From contig JAKACP010000001.1 of assembly GCA_021821305.1 (NCBI GenBank), positions 330,453 through 394,452 on the forward strand: a stretch of 64,000 nt of DNA. Direction: 5' to 3'. The translations under genes were made by a program, and so were the position numbers. The notes below the pieces were generated by a model, which was given only the letters and a program-made list of their open reading frames with translations, ran no database searches and was not told where the DNA came from. Below, one piece after another: positions 5,089 to 47,750 of this stretch; the first letter of the stretch is position 1, and each line of letters begins with the position of its first letter. The stretch comes from a bacterium (GTDB lineage Bacteria > Patescibacteriota > Minisyncoccia > Moranbacterales > UBA1568).

Positions 5089-5124
5089 ATGTCTCCATGA
5101 TACTACGAAAGCGTCTTCAATCTA

Positions 5125-5306
5125 AGAGCCTGTTGAAAAACTCACCGCCATGAAAGAAGATACCCGCTTGTCGGCTAAAATTCCGAAATTTCGTCTGCAA
5201 ACCGCTCACGCCTCGTCGGAATATCTCGATATTCCTCCTCGACCTTCACGGTTTTCGATCGAAATTTCGGAATTTGTAGCTCGACATGACTTTTTCAACA
5301 GGCTCT
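5125..5306 (-). repeat. Palindromic intergenic element, copy 4 (reverse orientation relative to copies 1-3)
   Basis: Terminal inverted repeats AGAGCCTGTTGAAAAA/TTTTTCAACAGGCTCT; conserved core motifs shared with copies at 18252, 20964 and 39296. Confidence 0.7.
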
Positions 5307-5361
5307 AAGCAAAAGGCGCCTGCCGAAATCGTATGGCAAGCGCCCCTGTTTCCGCGCCGGA

Positions 5362-16685: not shown

Positions 16686-16973
16686 ATGTGTGGTATAATA
16701 TTCCCCATGGAAGAGCTTCGGCAAAAAATAGAGGACATCTTCGAATCGGCAGGGCTTTCCGAGGAGGATCGGGCGTTGTGGCGGTCGCGCCTCTCGGCGG
16801 CCGACGATTCGTTTCCACGGACCTTCGTGACCCTGTTCGATGAGGAGGGTGATATGCTCCGTTTTTTCACGAACGATCTCCGCAAACGTGCGGAAGCCGG
16901 AAACGATGCCGAAAAACTTTCTTCCGTCCTCCGGGAAGAGAAGGAGTATTTCGCCAATATCCTCGCTGAGTAG
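16686..16973 (+). CDS. Small hypothetical protein
   Basis: ORF only. Confidence 0.3.
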   Translation: MCGIIFPMEELRQKIEDIFESAGLSEEDRALWRSRLSAADDSFPRTFVTLFDEEGDMLRFFTNDLRKRAEAGNDAEKLSSVLREEKEYFANILAE

Positions 16974-17014
16974 CCGTCTCAAATCTCACCGCGTAGATAA
17001 AAGAAGAACATAGT

Positions 17015-18253
17015 ATGCCATCATTCGAAACTTTTCCCGCGTCACACGGAACGGACGCGGAATCCGGGAAGAAAGCCTCCTTTGAACTGAACGGCACCTC
17101 GGTACCGGTCGAGGAGTTCATGACGCACCCGGCCGAGGCTGCCCTGGCCATACACGAGGCGAAGGAACGGCAGGAAGATCTCGGTGAATTCCGGACACAT
17201 ATGGAAGAGGCGATGCGGAACATCGAATCCGCGCTTCCGACCATGTCCGGAGAACAAGCTCCCGTGGAAGGAGCTGCTCCGGAATCCACCTCGAAGGCGG
17301 CCGAGAGACCATCCGAGGAAGACGACAAGGACGCGTTGCTCCTCAGGATCGCTTCCTTTGCGGAACGCATACCGGGCGGCAAAAACGCGCTCGGTGCGCT
17401 CGCGCTCGTCATCGGTCTCTCCTCCCTTCCGAAAGACGCCGAAGCGTTCTCGTTCGATCCGATCCAAGTCGCCGAGAAGGAGGTGGAGAGAGGCGTCAAC
17501 AGCGGCGTCCGGGGAGCGAGCCGCGATGCCGGCAGAGCGGTCGGCGGCGTGATCGAGCAGGCGGTCGGCGCCCTTCGCAAAAGCATCGGCCTCGAAACGC
17601 CCCAAGAGCGGGCGAAGCGGGAAAACGAGGAGAGGCGTGCGGAACAGCAACTCAAAAAACAGCATGATATCGAGGTGAGGAAGTTCAACCAGGAACAGGT
17701 TCAGCGGGTACGCGAGGATACCAAGCGAGTGACGAATTTCGAGCGGGCCACGGATCAGTACCAGCGGAAGCTCGAGGAGGTCCGAAGGACGTTCAATCAG
17801 GAGTTCGACCGGGCCCAGGCTTCCTACGTACAGCAACGGGATCGCGTGGGTTCACCCGAGCAGGCCAAGCGCTACGAACGCGAGCAGTGGCAACGGTGGC
17901 TCCAAGCGGCGAGGAGCGGCCTGCAGAGATTGGAGCAGTATGACAATGAGATGGACAATGCCGCGACGGACGTCTCGGGCGTGGTTTCCAGCCTTACGGA
18001 GCGTGCCGCGGAGGCCGAGCAGGAGCGAAACGGGCTCCTGCGGTCGAGCGAGGAGATGCGCCGGGCGTTGTCGGATCTTGCGGACAAGATGGAACGGAAT
18101 CTCGGAATCACCGAAAACGCCCAAAGCCCGCTCCGAAATCTCGAAGAGGAGAGGACGTCACCCGCCCCGTCTTCCCGGGCGGAACGGTCGTCCGGCGAAG
18201 AATCTTCCAGTCGTGATGACTGGGGCAAGATAGACCCGAAATATCGTTTTTAG
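17015..18253 (+). CDS. Hypothetical coiled-coil protein (Arg/Glu/Gln-rich C-terminal half)
   Basis: 412 aa ORF with a predicted TM segment and a long charged helix. Confidence 0.45.
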   Translation: MPSFETFPASHGTDAESGKKASFELNGTSVPVEEFMTHPAEAALAIHEAKERQEDLGEFRTHMEEAMRNIESALPTMSGEQAPVEGAAPESTSKAAERPSEEDDKDALLLRIASFAERIPGGKNALGALALVIGLSSLPKDAEAFSFDPIQVAEKEVERGVNSGVRGASRDAGRAVGGVIEQAVGALRKSIGLETPQERAKRENEERRAEQQLKKQHDIEVRKFNQEQVQRVREDTKRVTNFERATDQYQRKLEEVRRTFNQEFDRAQASYVQQRDRVGSPEQAKRYEREQWQRWLQAARSGLQRLEQYDNEMDNAATDVSGVVSSLTERAAEAEQERNGLLRSSEEMRRALSDLADKMERNLGITENAQSPLRNLEEERTSPAPSSRAERSSGEESSSRDDWGKIDPKYRF

Positions 18254-18437
18254 AGCCTGTCTAAATTCTCATGTCTTGAGAAAATATTCAGATTTCGAGC
18301 GAAAACCTTGAAAAGGGAGGAGGGCTATCGAGATACCCCGACGAGCTTTGAGAGGTTTGCAGCCGAAATCTGGATATTTTATCAGACAAGCTGTGAGTTT
18401 TCTTTTCTATTGGGCGGTGAGATTTTAGACAGGCTCT
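18252..18437 (+). repeat. Palindromic intergenic element, copy 1
   Basis: Terminal inverted repeats AGAGCCTGTCTAAATTCTCAT / GTGAGATTTTAGACAGGCTCT; nested inverted repeat AAAATATTCAGATTTCG / CGAAATCTGGATATTTT; core motifs TTTCGAGCGAAAACC, CCCCGACGAG, GGTTTGCAGCCGAAAT. Confidence 0.75.
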
Positions 18438-18455
18438 TGGTTGAACGAATAAAAT

Positions 18456-18490
18456 ACGCTCGACGGATTTTCCTCGAGCGTGTTTTTTTG
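18456..18490. terminator. Hairpin CGCTCGACGGATTTTCCTCGAGCG plus T7 (probably bidirectional, between convergent genes)
   Basis: Seen in sequence. Confidence 0.5.
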
Positions 18491-18498
18491 TCGTGAAT

Positions 18499-19459: not shown

Positions 19460-20944
19460 TTATCTCACGAAGATCCCCGTTTCCTCGGGAAAAGTGATGA
19501 ACGAGAACGACGCGTCCCCTTGGTCGTTTCTGGTGAGAAGGTAAATACGGTCTTCGCCGAAGGAGGAGAGCGCCTGTACGAGGGTACTGCCCGTCGGAAT
19601 CGGAATCAGGGTCTCCATCTGGCGGCGATCGCGGTGGTCGAGCTCGGCGATCTTCACTTCGCCGCCTATGCCGAACAGGATGTGTTCGTAGTCTTCGGTC
19701 CACTGCGCGGAGGAGAGGGGGGAGGAGAATCGGGCGATCTGGAGGACGTCGCCGCTCGATCGGACCGGCTGGACCTCCCAGTCGCGGGTGAACGCGACGG
19801 AGATCTCGTTTTCCGAGTAGAAGAGGAGCTTCTTGCCGTCATCGGAGAACTGGACGCCTTCGACCGCGTCGCCGAGCGATATCATCGCTGGGTTTCGGCC
19901 GCCGTCGTCATTGTAGAGGATTCCCTTGCCATGGAGGTCATAGACCGCCACCCGTCTCTCGTCGTAGACCGTGAGGACCGGGGTTTCGGCCCCGAGGATC
20001 GATTCGATCGGCGGGGTGATGGGATCCGGACCGAATTCCTCCTCGTTTCCGTAGGCTGACCGATAGACGATGCCTGTTTCCGCCTCGAGGGTGTAGAGAT
20101 ATCTCTGCGAGAGATCATAGGCGGATATGCCGGAGGAGAGGAGGACGGCTCTTTTTTCGGGAAGCGATTCTTTGGGTCGGATGACATAGAGATCCGAGTC
20201 CCCGGAGAGGACGAAAAACGCCCGCTCATCGGTCGGATGCCAGCGAGCGAAGGACGGGGCCGTGATCGGCGCGATATCGCGGATATCGGTGGTCTCCCCG
20301 GTCTCCCGGTCGATGATGAGTATGGTGGCGCCCCGATCGTCCGTGACGGGGACGAGTATACGTTCCTGGTCGGACCAGGAGAGCTCGATGTTCTCGAGGG
20401 TGTTGTCCGAGAACCGGTAGCGATCGCTTTCGAATACGAGAGTGCTTTCCCCGGAGATTTTGTCGAGAGCGTTGATGAATATCCGCTCGCCTTCCGTTCC
20501 GGAAAAAAGTATCGTGGCGCCGTCCGGAGAGGGGAACGCCTGCTCGTAGCGATCCGTCGATATCGTCTCCATCGGGTACTCTTGTCTCGGAAGGATGATG
20601 TTCCAGAACTCGGTCGATATCCCGCTCCCCACGGAGATCTTCTTCTCCCAGGGCTTGAATCCTGCGGCTTCGACGCGGATGAAGTGTTCGCCGGGCTGTA
20701 TGCCGGCCACATGCATCGACTGATTGATGATATTGAGCATCCCGTTGGGGACCTTTTTCCCGTCGAGGAAGATATCCACGGTCCTCGGGTTGGACTTGAT
20801 GGTCGCCGAGCCCGTGTAGATGAAGATGCCCCGATCGGCGCTCCACCGGTAGCCGAACGTCAGGAACAGCACGAGCGCGGTCGTCGTGACGAACAGGACG
20901 ATAAGTGTCCAGGAAAGCACAAATCGGAGGCGGTCGATACGCAT
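19460..20944 (-). CDS. Membrane-anchored PEGA-domain / beta-propeller (TolB-like) protein
   Basis: N-terminal TM helix; PEGA-like IFLDGKKVPNG; repeated beta-strand-rich C-terminus. Confidence 0.5.
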   Translation of the reverse strand: MRIDRLRFVLSWTLIVLFVTTTALVLFLTFGYRWSADRGIFIYTGSATIKSNPRTVDIFLDGKKVPNGMLNIINQSMHVAGIQPGEHFIRVEAAGFKPWEKKISVGSGISTEFWNIILPRQEYPMETISTDRYEQAFPSPDGATILFSGTEGERIFINALDKISGESTLVFESDRYRFSDNTLENIELSWSDQERILVPVTDDRGATILIIDRETGETTDIRDIAPITAPSFARWHPTDERAFFVLSGDSDLYVIRPKESLPEKRAVLLSSGISAYDLSQRYLYTLEAETGIVYRSAYGNEEEFGPDPITPPIESILGAETPVLTVYDERRVAVYDLHGKGILYNDDGGRNPAMISLGDAVEGVQFSDDGKKLLFYSENEISVAFTRDWEVQPVRSSGDVLQIARFSSPLSSAQWTEDYEHILFGIGGEVKIAELDHRDRRQMETLIPIPTGSTLVQALSSFGEDRIYLLTRNDQGDASFSFITFPEETGIFVR

Positions 20945-20963: not shown

Positions 20964-21154
20964 CTTAGTAACTGTACAAATTCTCATGTCGAGATGAAAT
21001 CCGAAAATTTCGAGCGAAAACCATGAACGTTGAGAAGGGATACTATCGTACCCCGACGAGACGTGAACGGTTTGCAGCCGAAATTTTCGGATTTCAGCCG
21101 GCAAGCGGAATTTTTCTTCTTATTCTTTCGGTGAGAATTTGGACAGTTACTTAG
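20964..21154 (+). repeat. Palindromic intergenic element, copy 2 (divergent termini)
   Basis: Terminal inverted repeats CTTAGTAACTGTACAAATTCTCAT / GTGAGAATTTGGACAGTTACTTAG; nested inverted repeat GAAATCCGAAAATTTCG / CGAAATTTTCGGATTTC; same core motifs as other copies. Confidence 0.7.
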
Positions 21155-21868: not shown

Positions 21869-22057
21869 TGTTAGGCAGTCTGAAGGAAGTACTGCTTCTT
21901 TTTTACTGTATTCCGCACATTTACAATCGATGGAGAAATCACAATTTTTTGTGGTTGGTCCTAAATTTCTTTGAGAAGGGTCATAGTCATCTTTGTAGGG
22001 TTTCCTTCGGGAAGCTCTACTCGGGGAAAACCTGTCTTCGGATAGATTTTCCTCTTT

Positions 22058-23549
<1,492 letters not shown>

Positions 23550-23680
23550 TAGGGAGTAAACGGTGGGTGCCGGGTTTCTCGCAAGAGAAGTCCGGAACCA
23601 ACGAAGGTCGATCGTTCCGATTCGTCGGAACGATACCTTCTCAAAGAACTGGACCAACCACAAAAGATTGTGAATCTTGA

Positions 23681-39265: not shown

Positions 39266-39295
39266 AGAGATGCCTCCAGCATAGCAGGGGTGTCG

Positions 39296-39457
39296 AGAGC
39301 CTGTCTAATAAGTCTCTTTCGTCGCGATTTTCCAAAATTTCGAGCGAAAAACGTACGGATGGAGGAGGGCTACTCGGAGGGTAGCCAGACGAGATACGGA
39401 CGTTTTACAGCCGAAATTTTGGAAATGCAGCGGAATACGGGCTTTTTAGACAGGCTC
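39296..39457 (+). repeat. Palindromic intergenic element, copy 3
   Basis: Terminal inverted repeats AGAGCCTGTCTAA / TTAGACAGGCTCT; nested inverted repeat TTCCAAAATTTCG / CGAAATTTTGGAA; core motifs TTTCGAGCGAAAA and CAGCCGAAAT. Confidence 0.7.
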
Positions 39458-43325: not shown

Positions 43326-44930
43326 CTAGCATCGGTTAGGCATCAAGGAAAGGTGGGTGAGCGGCTGAAACCAGCACACTGCTAACGTGCCAGGGGGTAA
43401 AACCCCTCGAGGGTTCGAATCCCTCCCTTTCCGCCAAAATTGGAAGTCTGCATTGGAACCCGAAATGGGGTCGCGCCGAAGGCGCGACACTAATGCATTC
43501 CCCCCAAAAAATTCTGAATCTGAAAGGGTTTTCCACGCTCCGCGTGGCTCAAAAAGTACGGTTCGATCCTTAATTAAAAAGTTCGAACCGACTTTTTTGA
43601 ACAAATGAGTATTTTCCTCATTTGTTCGGTCGTTTGCCAATTCCATATTGTATTTCAAAAACTTTTCGGTAAGTTCGAACCGATTATTCGCTTTTTGTTC
43701 AAAAGCCGATAATTTCTCTTTGAGAAGCTGTTTTGCGGCAACCAGAGCATTTTTAGCATCACGATATTCTTCTAGTGAAAGTGCGCTCTCCAAATACGCC
43801 GTCATCAGCTTCTCAATTTTGATTTCTAAAAGAGAAATATCGGTTTTCAAGTTATCGGCAAAAAGCGTACTCGATTGGATTTCGGATGATTGGTCTTTTC
43901 TGTTTTCTTCAATCATCCAAGAAAGCCAATCGAGGGGCAAAGAAACTTTTTTGATTTCTTCTTGAATTTGAAAAGTGATGAGCTCCTCGCGGACATACTT
44001 CTGCTCACAAGGATTTTTCCGTTTGGTACATCGCAAATAGTTATGACCTTTTTGTTGCTCGGTGGTAATGAAGCAACCACATTCTCCGCAACGGAAAAAT
44101 CCTCTGTACAAATAATCCTTTAGCCCGCGAGATTTCGGTTTTGACTTTCGGCTCATCACTTCTTGAACGGAATCAAAAAGTTTCTTTGTGATAATTGGTT
44201 CATGCTTTCCCTCAAAAATCTCGCCATTGTAAAGCATTAAACCTGTGTAAATAGGATTTTTGAGAAGTTTTTGATAATTCGACACCGCAAGTTCCTTTCC
44301 GCTTTTTCGCTTCAATCCAAGTGCGTTAAATTTGTCGCGGAGTTCTCGCAAAGTGAAAGACCCAGACGAATATGCCTCAAATGTTTTCTTAATTAAGGGT
44401 GCGATATTTTCATCAACAACAATTTTTCCACCCTTGTTTATATATCCCAACGGAGACATTTGAGGCCATATTCCGTCTTTCACTTTGTTTCTCTTTCCAC
44501 GCTTGATATTTTCCGACAAATTATCGACATAATACTTGGATTGCGAAAAAGCGATTGAGAGCATGAACTTGCCTTGCGGTGTCGGATCAAACCAAAAAGT
44601 TGGGAATTTCATTTCAGAAATTACCCCGGTATCAACGAGGTAGATTATTTTTCCTCCATCTACCGAGTTGCGAGCAAGTCTATCAGGATGCCACGCCAAA
44701 ATACCAGTAGCTTCGCCCGCTTCCATTCTCGCTATCATTTCATTAAACACAGGGCGACCTGGTATTTTGGCGGTCTGCTTTTCGACAAAGACATCTACCA
44801 CTTCCAATTGTTCTTTCAACGCGAGTTCCTTTAATTCACTTAACTGGTCGGCAATACTGCGGACTTGTCTGTCTTTGTCGTCCGTAGACTTGCGAGTATA
44901 GATGAAAAACTTTTTGGTTTGATTATTCAT
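43326..44930 (-). CDS. Large serine recombinase (resolvase domain, recombinase domain, Zn ribbon); the C-terminal ~68 codons read through IR-A and antisense to tRNA-Ser
   Basis: N-terminal YTRKSTDDKDRQVRSIADQ with catalytic Ser; recombinase domain; CGECGC zinc ribbon; the functional C-terminus probably ends near residue ~465. Confidence 0.8.
   Translation of the reverse strand: MNNQTKKFFIYTRKSTDDKDRQVRSIADQLSELKELALKEQLEVVDVFVEKQTAKIPGRPVFNEMIARMEAGEATGILAWHPDRLARNSVDGGKIIYLVDTGVISEMKFPTFWFDPTPQGKFMLSIAFSQSKYYVDNLSENIKRGKRNKVKDGIWPQMSPLGYINKGGKIVVDENIAPLIKKTFEAYSSGSFTLRELRDKFNALGLKRKSGKELAVSNYQKLLKNPIYTGLMLYNGEIFEGKHEPIITKKLFDSVQEVMSRKSKPKSRGLKDYLYRGFFRCGECGCFITTEQQKGHNYLRCTKRKNPCEQKYVREELITFQIQEEIKKVSLPLDWLSWMIEENRKDQSSEIQSSTLFADNLKTDISLLEIKIEKLMTAYLESALSLEEYRDAKNALVAAKQLLKEKLSAFEQKANNRFELTEKFLKYNMELANDRTNEENTHLFKKVGSNFLIKDRTVLFEPRGAWKTLSDSEFFGGNALVSRLRRDPISGSNADFQFWRKGRDSNPRGVLPPGTLAVCWFQPLTHLSLMPNRC
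43347..43436 (+). tRNA. tRNA-Ser(GCT), CCA encoded
   Basis: Acceptor GGAAAGG/CCTTTCC; long variable arm; anticodon loop CTGCTAA. Confidence 0.8.
43431..43550. repeat. IR-A left arm (120 bp), perfect inverted repeat of 44952-45071
   Basis: Sequence comparison; includes CCGCCA from the tRNA-Ser 3' terminus. Confidence 0.8.
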
Positions 44931-44951
44931 AGAATTGTATTGGCAAACGAC

Positions 44952-45071
44952 GAGCCACGCGGAGCGTGGAAAACCCTTTCAGATTCAGAATTTTTTGGGG
45001 GGAATGCATTAGTGTCGCGCCTTCGGCGCGACCCCATTTCGGGTTCCAATGCAGACTTCCAATTTTGGCGG
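44952..45071. repeat. IR-A right arm (120 bp)
   Basis: Reverse complement identical to 43431-43550. Confidence 0.8.
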
Positions 45072-45339
45072 TGTGTATTAGACAACGTTCGAATGTATTT
45101 TGAGCTAAATCCTGACGATGAGCCCTAATCGCACGCGCGGAGCGCGTGGTGACTTGAAACTGCATTGTACGCTCGGATTGCGTGGTGATGCGAACCAAAG
45201 CGCCTCGGACACGCTCGCGGACTCGCGTGTGCAAAGACCAAAAAATTTCCTTGCATTTTTCTCGCGTCTCCTCCCCCCACCCCTCCGCCGCGAAGCGGAA
45301 AAAGAAATGGAAAGGAAATTTTTGGTTTTGCTTCGCCGT
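45068..45339. repeat. IR-B left arm (~272 bp), near-perfect inverted repeat of 47478-47750
   Basis: Sequence comparison (2 differences). Confidence 0.8.
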
Positions 45340-45412
45340 AGTCATACCTATATTGTATTTTATCACACCATTGAGTCAAGACACAACATTGATTATACTC
45401 AAACTAACAAAT

Positions 45413-45619
45413 ATGTCTGATTCATCAAAAAAACTTGCCGTGAATATGAAAAAGATTAGGGCTCGTAAGCATATGTCGCAAGGCGACATATGCCGAGAGC
45501 TTGGCGTTGACCGCGCTTACATCAGCACGATTGAATCGGGGAAACAAAACCCTACACTTTTAACGATTGAAAGAATAGCCAAAGCTCTCGGCGTTTCGGT
45601 TGATGAGTTGTTGAAATGA
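45413..45619 (+). CDS. XRE-family HTH transcriptional regulator
   Basis: HTH_3-like motif (MSQGDICRELGVDRAYISTIESGK); low GC. Confidence 0.65.
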   Translation: MSDSSKKLAVNMKKIRARKHMSQGDICRELGVDRAYISTIESGKQNPTLLTIERIAKALGVSVDELLK

Positions 45620-45740
45620 TATAGAGCAAGACATTCTCAGAACCCACCGATGCTTTACACAGCGATTGAGAAAGTGAGGTGTGGATAACGAATCGTATGT
45701 GTGCTTGCATTATTATATACGAATATGCTAATATACGCAT

Positions 45741-46040
45741 ATGATAGATTTATGCAAAGAAATCGCCCGCATGGGTAGAGGTATCGGCAATGAAAACCGC
45801 TATCGTATTATTGAAACCCTCATGAAGGGCTCCCAAACAGTTGGTGATATTGCTGGGAAAGTCGGCATGCCACAACCGACCGTTTCTCAAAATCTTCGGG
45901 TTTTGAAAGAAGCGGATCTTGTCGTTGACGAACGACGCGGACAAGAAGTGTATTACACGATTAATGTTATGTATATGACAAAACTGCTCAAGCGTTTGGC
46001 CGATGACGTATCAAAGAGCGGTGGCAAAAAGCCACATTAA
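45741..46040 (+). CDS. ArsR/SmtB-family transcriptional regulator
   Basis: Winged HTH; YRIIETL...TVSQNLRVLKEADLV. Confidence 0.7.
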   Translation: MIDLCKEIARMGRGIGNENRYRIIETLMKGSQTVGDIAGKVGMPQPTVSQNLRVLKEADLVVDERRGQEVYYTINVMYMTKLLKRLADDVSKSGGKKPH

Positions 46041-46068
46041 CAATTAAACCAATATTAATCACATCACT

Positions 46069-46710
46069 ATGAAAACAATTATTGATTCTCTCAAGTGGCG
46101 CTATGCTACTTACACATTTGACACCAGTAAAGGAATTTCAGAAAAGGATTTGCATACCGTTCTCGAAGCGGGAAATTTAGCGGCTACCGCTTTCGGCTTA
46201 CAACCATTCGAGTTTGTGGTAGTTAAAGATCAGACCATGAAAGAGTCGCTAGTTCCGCACGCGTACGGACAACAGCATCTCGCAAAAAACTCTGCTTTGG
46301 TGGTACTAGCTATTCGTACTGATCTCGATGAAGCCTATATTACCGAGTACATTGAGCGTATCGGGCGTGTCCGTGGCGTTCCCGTGGAGATGCTTGAAGG
46401 TTTCAAGCAATCAATGCTCGGCGCAATGAGTATGAAAGGAGCTGATGGCAGGAATGCGTGGGCGCAAAAGCAAGCATACATTGCACTCGGCACCATGATG
46501 GCAGCTGCTTCAGAATTACGAATAGATAATCACGGTGCGGAAGGCTTTGACCCCGAGAAGTTCGATGAAATGCTCGGCCTTAAAGCAAAGAATCTTCACG
46601 CCACTGTACTTCTTATGCTCGGCTACCGTACTGATACACCAGATGACAAGGAGAAAATGTTCCAAATCAAGGTCCGCAAGGAGTATGACGATATCGTAAG
46701 TGTTATCTAG
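46069..46710 (+). CDS. NAD(P)H nitroreductase-family protein
   Basis: Nitroreductase fold similarity over the full length. Confidence 0.7.
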   Translation: MKTIIDSLKWRYATYTFDTSKGISEKDLHTVLEAGNLAATAFGLQPFEFVVVKDQTMKESLVPHAYGQQHLAKNSALVVLAIRTDLDEAYITEYIERIGRVRGVPVEMLEGFKQSMLGAMSMKGADGRNAWAQKQAYIALGTMMAAASELRIDNHGAEGFDPEKFDEMLGLKAKNLHATVLLMLGYRTDTPDDKEKMFQIKVRKEYDDIVSVI

Positions 46711-46731
46711 TTACTTACACGAAAACATTCT

Positions 46732-47115
46732 ATGAAAACTTTCTTCAAAACGCTTACGACACAGCAAAAGGTTGGCTATGTGCTCGCTACGCTTCTCTCG
46801 ATTCTTTTGCTTCTACCCGCGACCCTCAAAATCATAAGTTTCCCGATGTTCGTCGAACTCTTTACAGCACACAACATTGGCGAGTTTCTGACCGTTATCG
46901 GCCTTGGCCTCGCAGTTTCGAGTATTCTCTACGCGATACCTCGCACTAAAATGCTCGGCACCCTTCTTTTGTCAGCGTACTTCGGCGGCGCAATCGTCTT
47001 TCACATGACTGCTGACGAGCCGTTTATCATTCAGTCGGTTGTTCTTGTACTGATGTGGCTCTTTGCTTGGCTTCGTGATCCGAATGTATTTCTTCCAAAG
47101 TACTCAGATGAGTAA
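46732..47115 (+). CDS. DoxX-like membrane protein
   Basis: 127 aa, 4 TM helices, DoxX-like pattern. Confidence 0.45.
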   Translation: MKTFFKTLTTQQKVGYVLATLLSILLLLPATLKIISFPMFVELFTAHNIGEFLTVIGLGLAVSSILYAIPRTKMLGTLLLSAYFGGAIVFHMTADEPFIIQSVVLVLMWLFAWLRDPNVFLPKYSDE

Positions 47116-47477
47116 AGAGGTCTTTTTGAAGTTAAGGGAGCCAACCCCCGTCGTTTTATAATTTTCCTCAAAAACGGCGGGGGTTGTTGTGCGCGCACTG
47201 GGTGGGGCAAGCACATACAGATTTGTTTGTGCCTCAGCACAATCCATATTCCTTTGAATCACCACTAAACTCTCTCGAAGCCACCAAGCGAACACACACA
47301 ACACCGAAGCAGCCAGCGCGAGCGAATGCGAGCGGGCTATGCGAAGGCGGTTGTGTGTGGTTCGCGGACGTTAGAGTTACCACCAAACGCGGATACGGAT
47401 GCGCCTCGGTCGCCGTGAGGGTGGAGAAAAGAGCAATCAAAAGTGATAAACTAATAGTGCTTTTTTCGGAGACTGAA

Positions 47478-47750
47478 ACGGCGAAGCAAAACCAAAAATT
47501 TCCTTTCCATTTCTTTTTCCGCTTCGCGGTGGAGGGGGTGGGGGGAGGAGACGCGAGAAAAATGCAAGGAAATTTTTTGGTCTTTGCACACGCGAGTCCG
47601 CGAGCGTGTCCGAGGCGCTTTGGTTCGCATCACCACGCAATCCGAGCGTACAATGCAGTTTCAAGTCACCACGCGCTCCGCGCGTGCGATTAGGGCTCAT
47701 CGTCAGGATTTAGCTCAAAATACATTCGAACGTTGTCTAATACACACCGC
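47478..47750. repeat. IR-B right arm
   Basis: Reverse complement matches 45068-45339. Confidence 0.8.

Follow-up and report, generated by a model that had tools for sequence, protein, structure and literature searches.

Enterobacterial repetitive intergenic consensus (ERIC, or IRU) elements of the Enterobacteriaceae are intergenic imperfect palindromes (127 bp for ERIC) that occur in many copies and are present or absent from strain to strain; in 2006 Wilson and Sharp reportedly argued that their conserved hairpin is selected at the level of a single strand, as RNA. Correia elements (NEMIS or CREE) of Neisseria are MITEs (miniature inverted-repeat transposable elements) of ~100-200 bp that have terminal inverted repeats (TIRs) and fold into hairpins; their ends carry promoter-like boxes, and the elements can affect neighbouring genes (PMC10969869, which also reviews the general properties of MITEs). 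The MITEs of the IS5 family, insertion sequences (ISs) of the IS1031/IS427 group and the Tourist MITEs (PIF/Harbinger) make 3-bp TNA, TAA or TTA duplications. Within the IS5 family, IS1237 duplicates TAA, and three-nucleotide targets are common in the IS1031 group (PMC2516522). REPINs (RAYT) are non-autonomous hairpin repeats that persist without a linked transposase and keep their arms complementary. Here, a repeat family with likenesses to each of these is described from a 64,000-nt stretch of a Candidatus Moranbacteria genome (contig JAKACP010000001.1, positions 330,453 to 394,452; the window). ERIC and Correia elements are its closest analogues in behaviour, IS5-family and Tourist MITEs in insertion signature, and REPINs in the persistence of a hairpin. 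As a whole, the data are best explained by a new MITE family that is mobilised in trans and has an unusual strand-specific structured core, a reading to which we give a probability of about 0.7.

The family is represented in the window by four full copies of 161-184 bp and one 40-nt remnant, all intergenic and non-coding (Table 1; the full copies are called 5k, 18k, 21k and 39k). The four had been reported by an earlier, sequence-only reading of this DNA, and each was recovered where that reading placed it. In the window, an nhmmer profile of the four copies matches these four (E values of 3e-60 to 8e-44) and gives one weak partial match. A 20-base spaced pattern built from the two most conserved motifs has four matches, against 0 expected from 100 shuffles. 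With its filters off, a covariance model gives the copies scores of 102-119 bits for the sense strand, as compared to 21-37 bits for the antisense strand, and the rest of the window stays at noise level. Boundaries were set by arm-against-arm extension, and the element runs G...C. The core motifs listed by the sequence-only reading are present, but they are not all common to the four copies: TCATGTCGAG and AGCCGRCAAGCGG are confined to the three longer type A copies. Its statement that the arms differ between copies, which are 60-74% identical, yet remain complementary within each copy was confirmed. So was the lack of coding capacity, since no Pfam-supported gene overlaps any window copy, except for the TAG stop at 18251-18253. 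The gene contexts also proved correct by Pfam: one copy over a stop codon and one between prfA and rpmE, one ~20 bp from a start codon (measured here at 24 nt, or 21 nt from its target-site duplication (TSD)), and one ~31 bp upstream of recG (measured at 32 nt). Of the options that the reading offered for such elements, the MITE-like one is supported: the elements are non-coding and shorter than ~600 bp, they have TIRs and TSDs, and their dispersed copies are polymorphic for presence and absence. The identification as a MITE follows from mobility, the 3-bp duplication and a shared, degenerate terminal-repeat consensus.

Mobility is evident from orthologous loci, a comparison that the sequence-only reading had proposed: at three of the four insertion sites, close relatives have an empty site. 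The rpmE-prfA spacer holds the element, and measures 273 nt, both in the window and in strains whose PrfA is 99% identical; in relatives at 94, 92 and 91% PrfA identity it has no element and measures 90-93 nt. Against three of the collected loci (L126, L128 and L129), the junction is gap-free once GAGCC...GGCTC and one TTA are deleted. It reads CCTTTTGC-TTA-GATTGAAG in the window and CCTTTTGC-TTC-GGTCGAAT in the relatives, the target being TTC in all three loci. Removal of the element with one TTA leaves 3, 1 and 2 internal gap columns, as compared to 10, 4 and 9 on removal of the element alone and 6, 4 and 5 on removal of the element with both TTAs. The gap-free junction therefore indicates a 3-bp target duplication. 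The 21k site is empty in relatives at 78% and 64% identity (L121 and L122). At 85% identity, a relative carries another copy that lies ~25 bp from this site and points the other way, and such a copy is present in L119 and L120. L119 and L122 have an empty 18k site. At the same TTA as the 18k copy, L121 (3403-3451) retains a remnant of 49 nt that is internally deleted, has ends of the GTAAC type and belongs to a different TIR class. Independent insertions of the subfamilies have taken place in sister lineages, at sites that are nearby or identical.

Homologues of two proteins of the window bear Candidatus Moranbacteria/Moraniibacteriota names. The family extends well beyond this genome and was found in well over 100 genome and metagenome contigs, mostly from Patescibacteria. 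The pattern scan of genomes, one per species, gave at least 117 stretches and that of metagenomes at least 120; about two thirds of the pattern-matching contigs were confirmed by nhmmer as family members. There are 107 distinct nhmmer copies in the window and the genome loci listed, and 80 copies were confirmed among the metagenome matches listed. Nearly all of the true pattern matches listed come from metagenome-assembled genomes (MAGs) of Patescibacteria, with a few bins otherwise labelled. The carriers are Moranii-, Saccharibacteria, Parcu-/Paceibacteria, Peregrini-/Peribacteria, Doudna-, Kerfeld-, Uhr-, Falkow-, Magasanik-, Collier-, Vogel-, Taylor- and Liptonbacteria, among others, such that the family is spread across Patescibacteria. 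Two Hyphomicrobiales MAGs (L033, L039) contain a GC-rich variant that has in common with the family only the TTTCGAGCGAAAA / TTTGCAGCCGAAA module and a 160-nt palindrome. This suggests that the range of the family, or of that module at least, is not limited to Patescibacteria. Viral contigs gave no match, leaving carriage by phage unsupported. The elements have no Rfam 15 match at gathering thresholds, and permissive searches returned only chance-level hairpin matches (E of at least 0.4). A search of the published literature with core and TIR sequence strings, and with MITE keywords for the candidate phyla radiation (CPR), returned nothing relevant.

Several diverged subfamilies, with different TIR classes and with type A and type B bodies, coexist in the one Moranbacteria genome. 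Copies from the same MAG are up to 99% identical, whereas the window copies, each a near-perfect hairpin, are only as similar to one another as stated above. Because sites are empty in close relatives, the copies are young in place and the subfamilies old. Selection on which copies go on to multiply, and not maintenance in place, thus accounts for the compensatory pattern.

The insertion signature was examined in the same collections. Copies are inserted at a T-N-A triplet, mostly TTA or TAA and often a stop codon or an AT-rich spacer by a gene end, and the triplet is duplicated. Identical flanking triplets occur in 14 of 63 copies of the genome set, where shuffling predicts 5.7 (p = 3e-4). 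The independent metagenome set has perfect triplets in 13 of 35 copies (TAA in six, TTA in six, TGA in one) against 4.9 expected (p < 1e-4), and only three palindromic flanks. Over ~100 other copies, perfect TNA duplications reach 2.5 times the chance frequency, and TTA, TAA, TGA and TCA all occur as duplicated triplets. As both TTA and TAA are found within one TIR class, the triplet is a true duplication and not a cleavage site encoded by the element; the pattern is consistent with elements that can enter a T-N-A target in either orientation. The stop codons TAA and TGA are themselves TNA triplets, and accordingly ends often lie near stop codons: 20 of 59 stop-facing ends are within 6 nt of one, as compared to 7 of 57 start-facing ends. 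All copies are intergenic. A 2-bp TA duplication, as in IS630/Tc1-mariner, Correia-, ERIC- or RUP-like elements, does not describe the family, since the window copies and most young copies have TTA/TAA repeats and the empty-site alignment closes on removal of the element plus 3 bp, not 2 bp. Some subfamilies have TA...TA or 4-bp repeats, and the flanks of older copies have decayed.

The ends themselves are degenerate and related. Anchored on the CTST tetramer, the termini have the consensus TWA followed by GRRM-CTST-YYnAAAWYT, with the arms paired to the last base, and the TIR classes GAGCCTGT, GTAACTGT, GTATCTCT, GACCTCT and GAACYCAT recur in distant taxa. The sequence-only reading had argued that a TIR read by a transposase should stay constant between copies. 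This argument is overturned by the degenerate shared consensus, the recurring TIR classes, the 3-bp duplications and the empty sites. The start with G-purine and the A-rich stretch after the TIR would be in the style of IS5-family and Tourist ends, a resemblance that serves as a lead only.

With these properties in hand, the differences from known systems can be set out. ERIC inserts at TA and occurs in a few gamma-proteobacterial families, whereas the present family makes 3-bp TNA duplications, falls into TIR classes and occupies many Patescibacteria lineages; unlike ERIC, it also has no preference for the transcribed orientation. Correia elements differ in their TA duplication, fixed 26-bp TIR, IHF site and restriction to one genus, and they have no sequence similarity to the present family. 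IS5- and Tourist-type MITEs ordinarily lack a deeply conserved, strand-specific structured core, which the present family has.

The body between the ends is a rod-like imperfect hairpin with freely covarying stems and conserved loops. The fold called for by the sequence-only reading was obtained: the 18k copy forms a near-continuous hairpin of -82 kcal/mol (z = -7.5), as compared to -66 kcal/mol for its complement. Type A bodies (~185 nt) carry on the 3' arm a side hairpin with a pyrimidine-rich loop, which makes a three-way junction; type B bodies measure ~162 nt. Moving outward from the apex, an apical stem with conserved T-A/A-T pairs is followed by the helix 5'-CGA-S-GA / 5'-GA-S'-GAG, in which two tandem G·A pairs surround one Watson-Crick pair. 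Then come a 3-bp stem, a TGAA/TGAG tandem G·A, the stem AAAC.../...GTTT, a GA/GCA loop and GC/GC. Beyond these, a bulged A leads to the stem TTTCG/CGAAA and then to a stem that varies; last come another CG-A-GC-like module and the TIR stem. The conserved non-Watson-Crick loops are the bulged-A helix CG-A-GC/GCCG with its GA/GCA loop, the TGAA/TGAG tandem G·A and the double tandem G·A of the helix below the apical stem.

Covariation was assessed on an alignment of 81 sequences covering the core and 24 nt on each side. There, 91.4% of cells are paired, as compared to 67.9% after shuffling and 29-47% with the partner column slid; both partners have changed in 693 cells (205 in shuffles), and compensation is seen at 27 of the 36 pairs. 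The Watson-Crick pair between the tandem G·A motifs is G-C in 43 copies and C-G in 33. The stem covariation and the selection on the fold that were proposed from the four copies are both upheld. The conservation of mismatched loops rules out that one arm is simply copied from the other. A K-turn reading of GAGGA...GACGAG, with the motif 'flipping' in some copies, was rejected, as the pair layout shows an uninterrupted helix that contains two tandem G·A motifs; the apparent GAGGA/GACGAG flip arises because the single Watson-Crick pair swaps from G-C to C-G. Hammerhead and other small ribozymes, signal recognition particle RNA and 6S RNA, considered because of the motifs, are not supported, as the core nucleotides lack the pattern of conservation that these RNAs require and there is no Rfam match.

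The constraint on this structure acts on one strand only and extends out to the last base pairs of the TIRs. With the sense strand defined as the one that reads TTTCGAGCGAAAA, isolated G·T oppositions outnumber A·C by 145 to 55; the structural alignment gives 148 to 68. Beyond the core, the terminal 22 nt have 82 to 20 and the stretch further in has 67 to 31, and the metagenome replicate gives 40 to 10 and 56 to 38, respectively. The wobbles are dispersed over positions, both arms and many lineages. The conserved mismatches set purine against purine on the sense strand and pyrimidine against pyrimidine on its complement. Of the two strands, the sense strand is the more stable in 82 of 84 and 48 of 50 copies with RNA parameters, and in 84 of 84 with DNA parameters. 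A cruciform cannot yield such asymmetry, because in the double-stranded form each mismatch is felt on both strands; the symmetric DNA cruciform, one of the selected forms entertained in the sequence-only reading, is therefore excluded.

The selected strand is not simply host mRNA. Relative to the upstream gene, copies lie in the same or the opposite orientation in 27 and 30 cases in one set and 14 and 21 in the other, and relative to the downstream gene in 27 and 32 and in 17 and 21 (genes called by a crude composition-scored caller that was checked against Pfam on the window). Orientation is thus random, which also makes regulatory selection at the level of the host unlikely. There is a weak tendency, seen again in the replicate, for the sense strand to coincide with whichever strand is C-rich locally (30 vs 48; 15 vs 22).

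A first alternative is that the element is primarily a structured small-RNA gene, or a cis-acting RNA, that happens to be mobile, in the extreme form through an RNA intermediate like that of a short interspersed nuclear element (SINE). Its conserved loops would bind a protein as RNA, and the RNA would serve the element or the cell. Such an RNA would account for the rich architecture with its conserved tandem G·A pairs and bulged A, for the strong covariation with G·U tolerated on one strand, and for the three-way junction formed by the type A side hairpin; two window copies do lie in sense orientation within transcription units. However, copies have no orientation preference with respect to their neighbours (upstream, 41 same and 51 opposite), no consistent internal promoter or terminator was found in them, and no Rfam family matches. 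The constraint covers the first and last base pairs, which would lie beyond any internally promoted transcript, and a 3-bp TNA duplication next to precise TIRs is what marks DNA transposition. A mobile small RNA is accordingly a doubtful account of the family.

A second alternative invokes single-stranded DNA: a REPIN-like or IS200/IS605-like element, moved by a single-copy HUH enzyme (Y1, RAYT-type) that recognises hairpin loops. The strand-specific constraint is compatible with single-stranded DNA, including the greater stability of the sense strand under DNA parameters noted above, and loops are conserved while stems vary. The failure to find a linked transposase, the persistence of the family across a whole superphylum and the weak orientation bias with respect to local GC skew (45 vs 70) point the same way. 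The insertion signature does not. The duplicated triplet is variable (TTA, TAA, TGA, TCA) and matches on both sides within one TIR class, which an HUH enzyme cannot bring about because it inserts by a fixed site without duplication. The skew bias, besides being weak, has a sign opposite to that expected for the lagging-strand template. At 160-190 bp, the element is far longer than REP units, and it has no GTAG-type flanking tetranucleotide; REPINs are shorter, consist of two REP units, and have neither such a TIR consensus nor the target duplication seen here. An HUH-moved element is thus very improbable, and the REP-like option of the sequence-only reading falls on the same two grounds of variable duplicated triplet and length, both for REP/REPIN-RAYT and for IS200/IS605.

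For the preferred reading, a MITE mobilised in trans, a mechanism can be proposed. A DDE transposase would make 3-bp staggered cuts and read the degenerate GRRM-CTST-YYnAAA ends; the best candidate would be an IS5-family (IS1031/IS427-type) or PIF-Harbinger-like enzyme. The proliferating 'master' copies would pass through a stage in which the sense strand is single-stranded and folded back, either as DNA or as RNA made from the master copies, with folded-back DNA slightly more likely than read-through RNA. Folding back of single-stranded DNA would join both transposon ends into a single duplex TIR, and the conserved loops would serve as protein-contact sites. For the host, the copies are mostly passengers; now and then one may supply an outward-facing -35-like box, as with the TAGACA upstream of recG, and effects on the host are probably incidental.

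A bolder form of this proposal, which we regard as unlikely, is that the hairpin is a functional single-stranded nucleic acid needed for spread, as RNA or single-stranded DNA, whose conserved bulged-A and tandem G·A loops would bind a protein conserved across CPR. If the RNA version were true, the hairpin would be a protein-binding RNA derived from master copies, for instance a guide, regulator or template, and the family a SINE-like, RNA-dependent mobile element in bacteria. If the DNA version were true, an obligatory folded-back substrate would represent a new mode of recognition for a transposon with TIRs and TSDs.

Several points weigh against a MITE with a strand-specific core moved by such an enzyme. 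With regard to the core, the wobbles are counted per copy and not per evolutionary event, and at the level of base pairs the excess of G·T over A·C is 16 to 7 (p = 0.09). The cause of the one-strand constraint is one that we infer, and, to our knowledge, no DDE transposase requires a single-stranded fold-back substrate. In most collected copies, TTTCGANCGAAAA and CAGNCGAAA are invariant because the search pattern demands it; nine nhmmer copies found without that pattern retain the NGCGA/GCAGC loop, and their flanking stem compensates, from TTTCG/CGAAA to TTTTG/CAAAA or CTTCG/CGAAG. With regard to insertion, about one third of the older copies, the 39k copy included, have palindromic (xTA...TAx) or unmatched flanks, and some subfamilies may make a 2-bp TA duplication; GAAC-type copies in L020 and L054 do show TA...TA flanks. 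With regard to the enzyme, no autonomous element emerged from the searches, and no DDE transposase was found among ~45 window open reading frames (ORFs) annotated by Pfam and most others annotated through loci L001, L119 and L123. None adjoins ~100 copies whose neighbouring proteins were clustered and searched with Pfam, and ~1.9 Mb of collected DNA contains no IS-sized TIR pair by TIR matches or a TIR-consensus pair scan. The proposed link to IS5/PIF-Harbinger enzymes draws on the TSD type, the style of the TIRs and one paper, with no matched IS.

The remaining results of the transposase search are in keeping with these. The sole recombinase in the window is a large serine recombinase in an unrelated island. 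The genes beside copies are housekeeping genes, among them those for EF-G/EF-Tu, S7, ABC transporters, PilM, SecDF and Mur ligase. Generic inverted repeats 0.5-3 kb apart in the collected loci revealed no IS, and a 55-bp inverted repeat in L101, considered as an IS boundary, was found not to bound one.

A third alternative is a regulatory module selected by the host for what it does to adjacent genes, acting as terminator, mRNA stabiliser, promoter donor or recombination signal. Copies abut gene ends, often in conserved operons (rpsG-fusA, rpmE-prfA), and upstream of recG, as well as downstream of the 18k copy, the outward TAGACA of the TIR has a -10-like box in the flank to pair with. However, the same genes manage without the element in close relatives, site occupancy turns over between lineages, orientation is random and no T-tract follows the hairpin. 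The 18k copy precedes an older, separate intrinsic terminator that is also present in a relative without the copy, and the terminator or recombination signal suggested in the sequence-only reading is left unsupported. Selection of the family as a host module is highly improbable.

The implications of the family are practical as well as mechanistic. CPR genomes are tiny and are thought to be poor in mobile elements. In the present case, a single family of non-coding transposons attains several copies per 64 kb among essential genes, often exactly on stop codons, and many of these lineages share it. It is a marker of recent genome change in uncultured bacteria, explains many assembly breaks in metagenome bins of Patescibacteria, and should be masked when regulatory RNAs are sought. 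Conservation on one strand of a 160-190-nt rod with fixed non-canonical loops goes beyond the standard picture of a MITE. The strand-specific core offers a handle on whether hairpins of single-stranded DNA or RNA help such elements multiply, and on the enzyme that mobilises them.

Table 1. Copies of the repeat family and other located features of the window (window positions; scores from the covariance model)
Feature	Positions	Strand	Type and length	TIR	Core	Score (bits)	Flanks	Context or content
5k copy	5126-5305	minus	A, 180 bp	GAGCCTGTTGAAAAAG	5165-5289	119	TTA duplication, 5306-5308, partner 5123-5125	rpmE-prfA spacer; orientation that of both genes
18k copy	18253-18436	plus	A, 184 bp	GAGCCTGTCTAAAT	18269-18392	118	TTA 18250-18252 left, TTG 18437-18439 right	Between stop codon of ORF 17015-18253 and intrinsic terminator ~18460-18492
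21k copy	20968-21150	plus	A, 183 bp	GTAACTGTACAAAT	20984-21107	115	TTA duplication, 20965-20967 and 21151-21153	Upstream of start codon of PEGA-domain gene (19460-20944, minus), antisense to it
39k copy	39297-39457	plus	B, 161 bp, without side hairpin	GAGCCTGTCTAATAAG	39314-39440	102	CGA left and TAA right; these differ, hence no target duplication	Upstream of recG start, antisense to it
Truncated fifth copy	~16970-17009	minus	Right end only of type A, 40 nt	GTAGCCGTCTCAAATC (GTAGCC-type)			 	Pyrimidine-rich segment, GGTGAGA, TIR; the weak nhmmer match (model positions 156-196)
Promoter-like site facing recG	39278-39307	minus						TAGACA, 18 nt, TG-TATGCT; TAGACA from left TIR read outward
Promoter-like site downstream of 18k copy	18426-18455	plus						TAGACA, 18 nt, TAAAAT
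Integrated island	43326-47750							GC dip to 0.45
Serine recombinase gene of island	43326-44930							Overlaps a tRNA
Inverted repeat of island, 216-bp arms	45068-45283 / 47535-47750							Perfect
Inverted repeat of island, 120-bp arms	43431-43550 / 44952-45071							Perfect
Perfect inverted repeat of island, 52-bp arms	start 45288, end 47529							
16S rRNA gene	22055-23548							Complete

The truncated fifth copy lies directly upstream of ORF 17015-18253, the same gene whose stop codon carries the 18k copy. A copy identical to the 39k copy is found in locus L001. Two promoter-like sites, one facing recG and one downstream of the 18k copy, can be drawn at the ends of copies (Table 1). Elsewhere, copies recur in the rpsG-fusA-tuf (str) operon region of unrelated lineages (L052, L037, L074, L079 and L105), and in L052 the copy lies between rpsG and fusA.

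Contigs of several MAGs (L042, L023, L064 and other loci) start or end within a copy; the repeat is abundant enough in those genomes to break assemblies. Three of these loci come from the same MAG (ELA282), and in one of them (L023:3599-3888) the core in the middle of the element is inverted with respect to the outer arms when compared with the other two (L042 and L064). Recombination between the inverted arms of the element itself is expected to give this arrangement, and Correia elements have been reported with their central part inverted. In L038 (3084-3405) and L031 (4217-4386), short GC-rich perfect palindromes, CCCGCCCGAACGTACCGTTCGGTACGGGCGGG and CCTGCCTGCCGGCAGGCAGG, interrupt copies in or beside the conserved GCAGC loop and may represent a second, much smaller kind of inserted hairpin.

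TIGR arrays, which are Tas-associated and common in CPR, were considered as another type of repeat in these genomes. They consist of tandem short units with variable loop spacers and lie beside a Nop-domain tas gene (PMC12045711). By that description the present family is set apart, as its copies are solitary, with conserved loops, variable stems and housekeeping neighbours.

Two further features of the window are separate from the repeat family. The integrated island begins with the large serine recombinase gene, which is followed by HTH, ArsR, nitroreductase and DoxX genes, and the island contains three sets of inverted-repeat arms (Table 1). The window also contains a complete 16S rRNA gene and no 23S or 5S gene, so that the rRNA genes are unlinked. 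An inverted repeat of 15 bp (TTTTGTGGTTGGTCC at 21947, with its partner ending at 23665) flanks the 16S gene on either side; it is also present in the relative L122 and is probably the processing stem.

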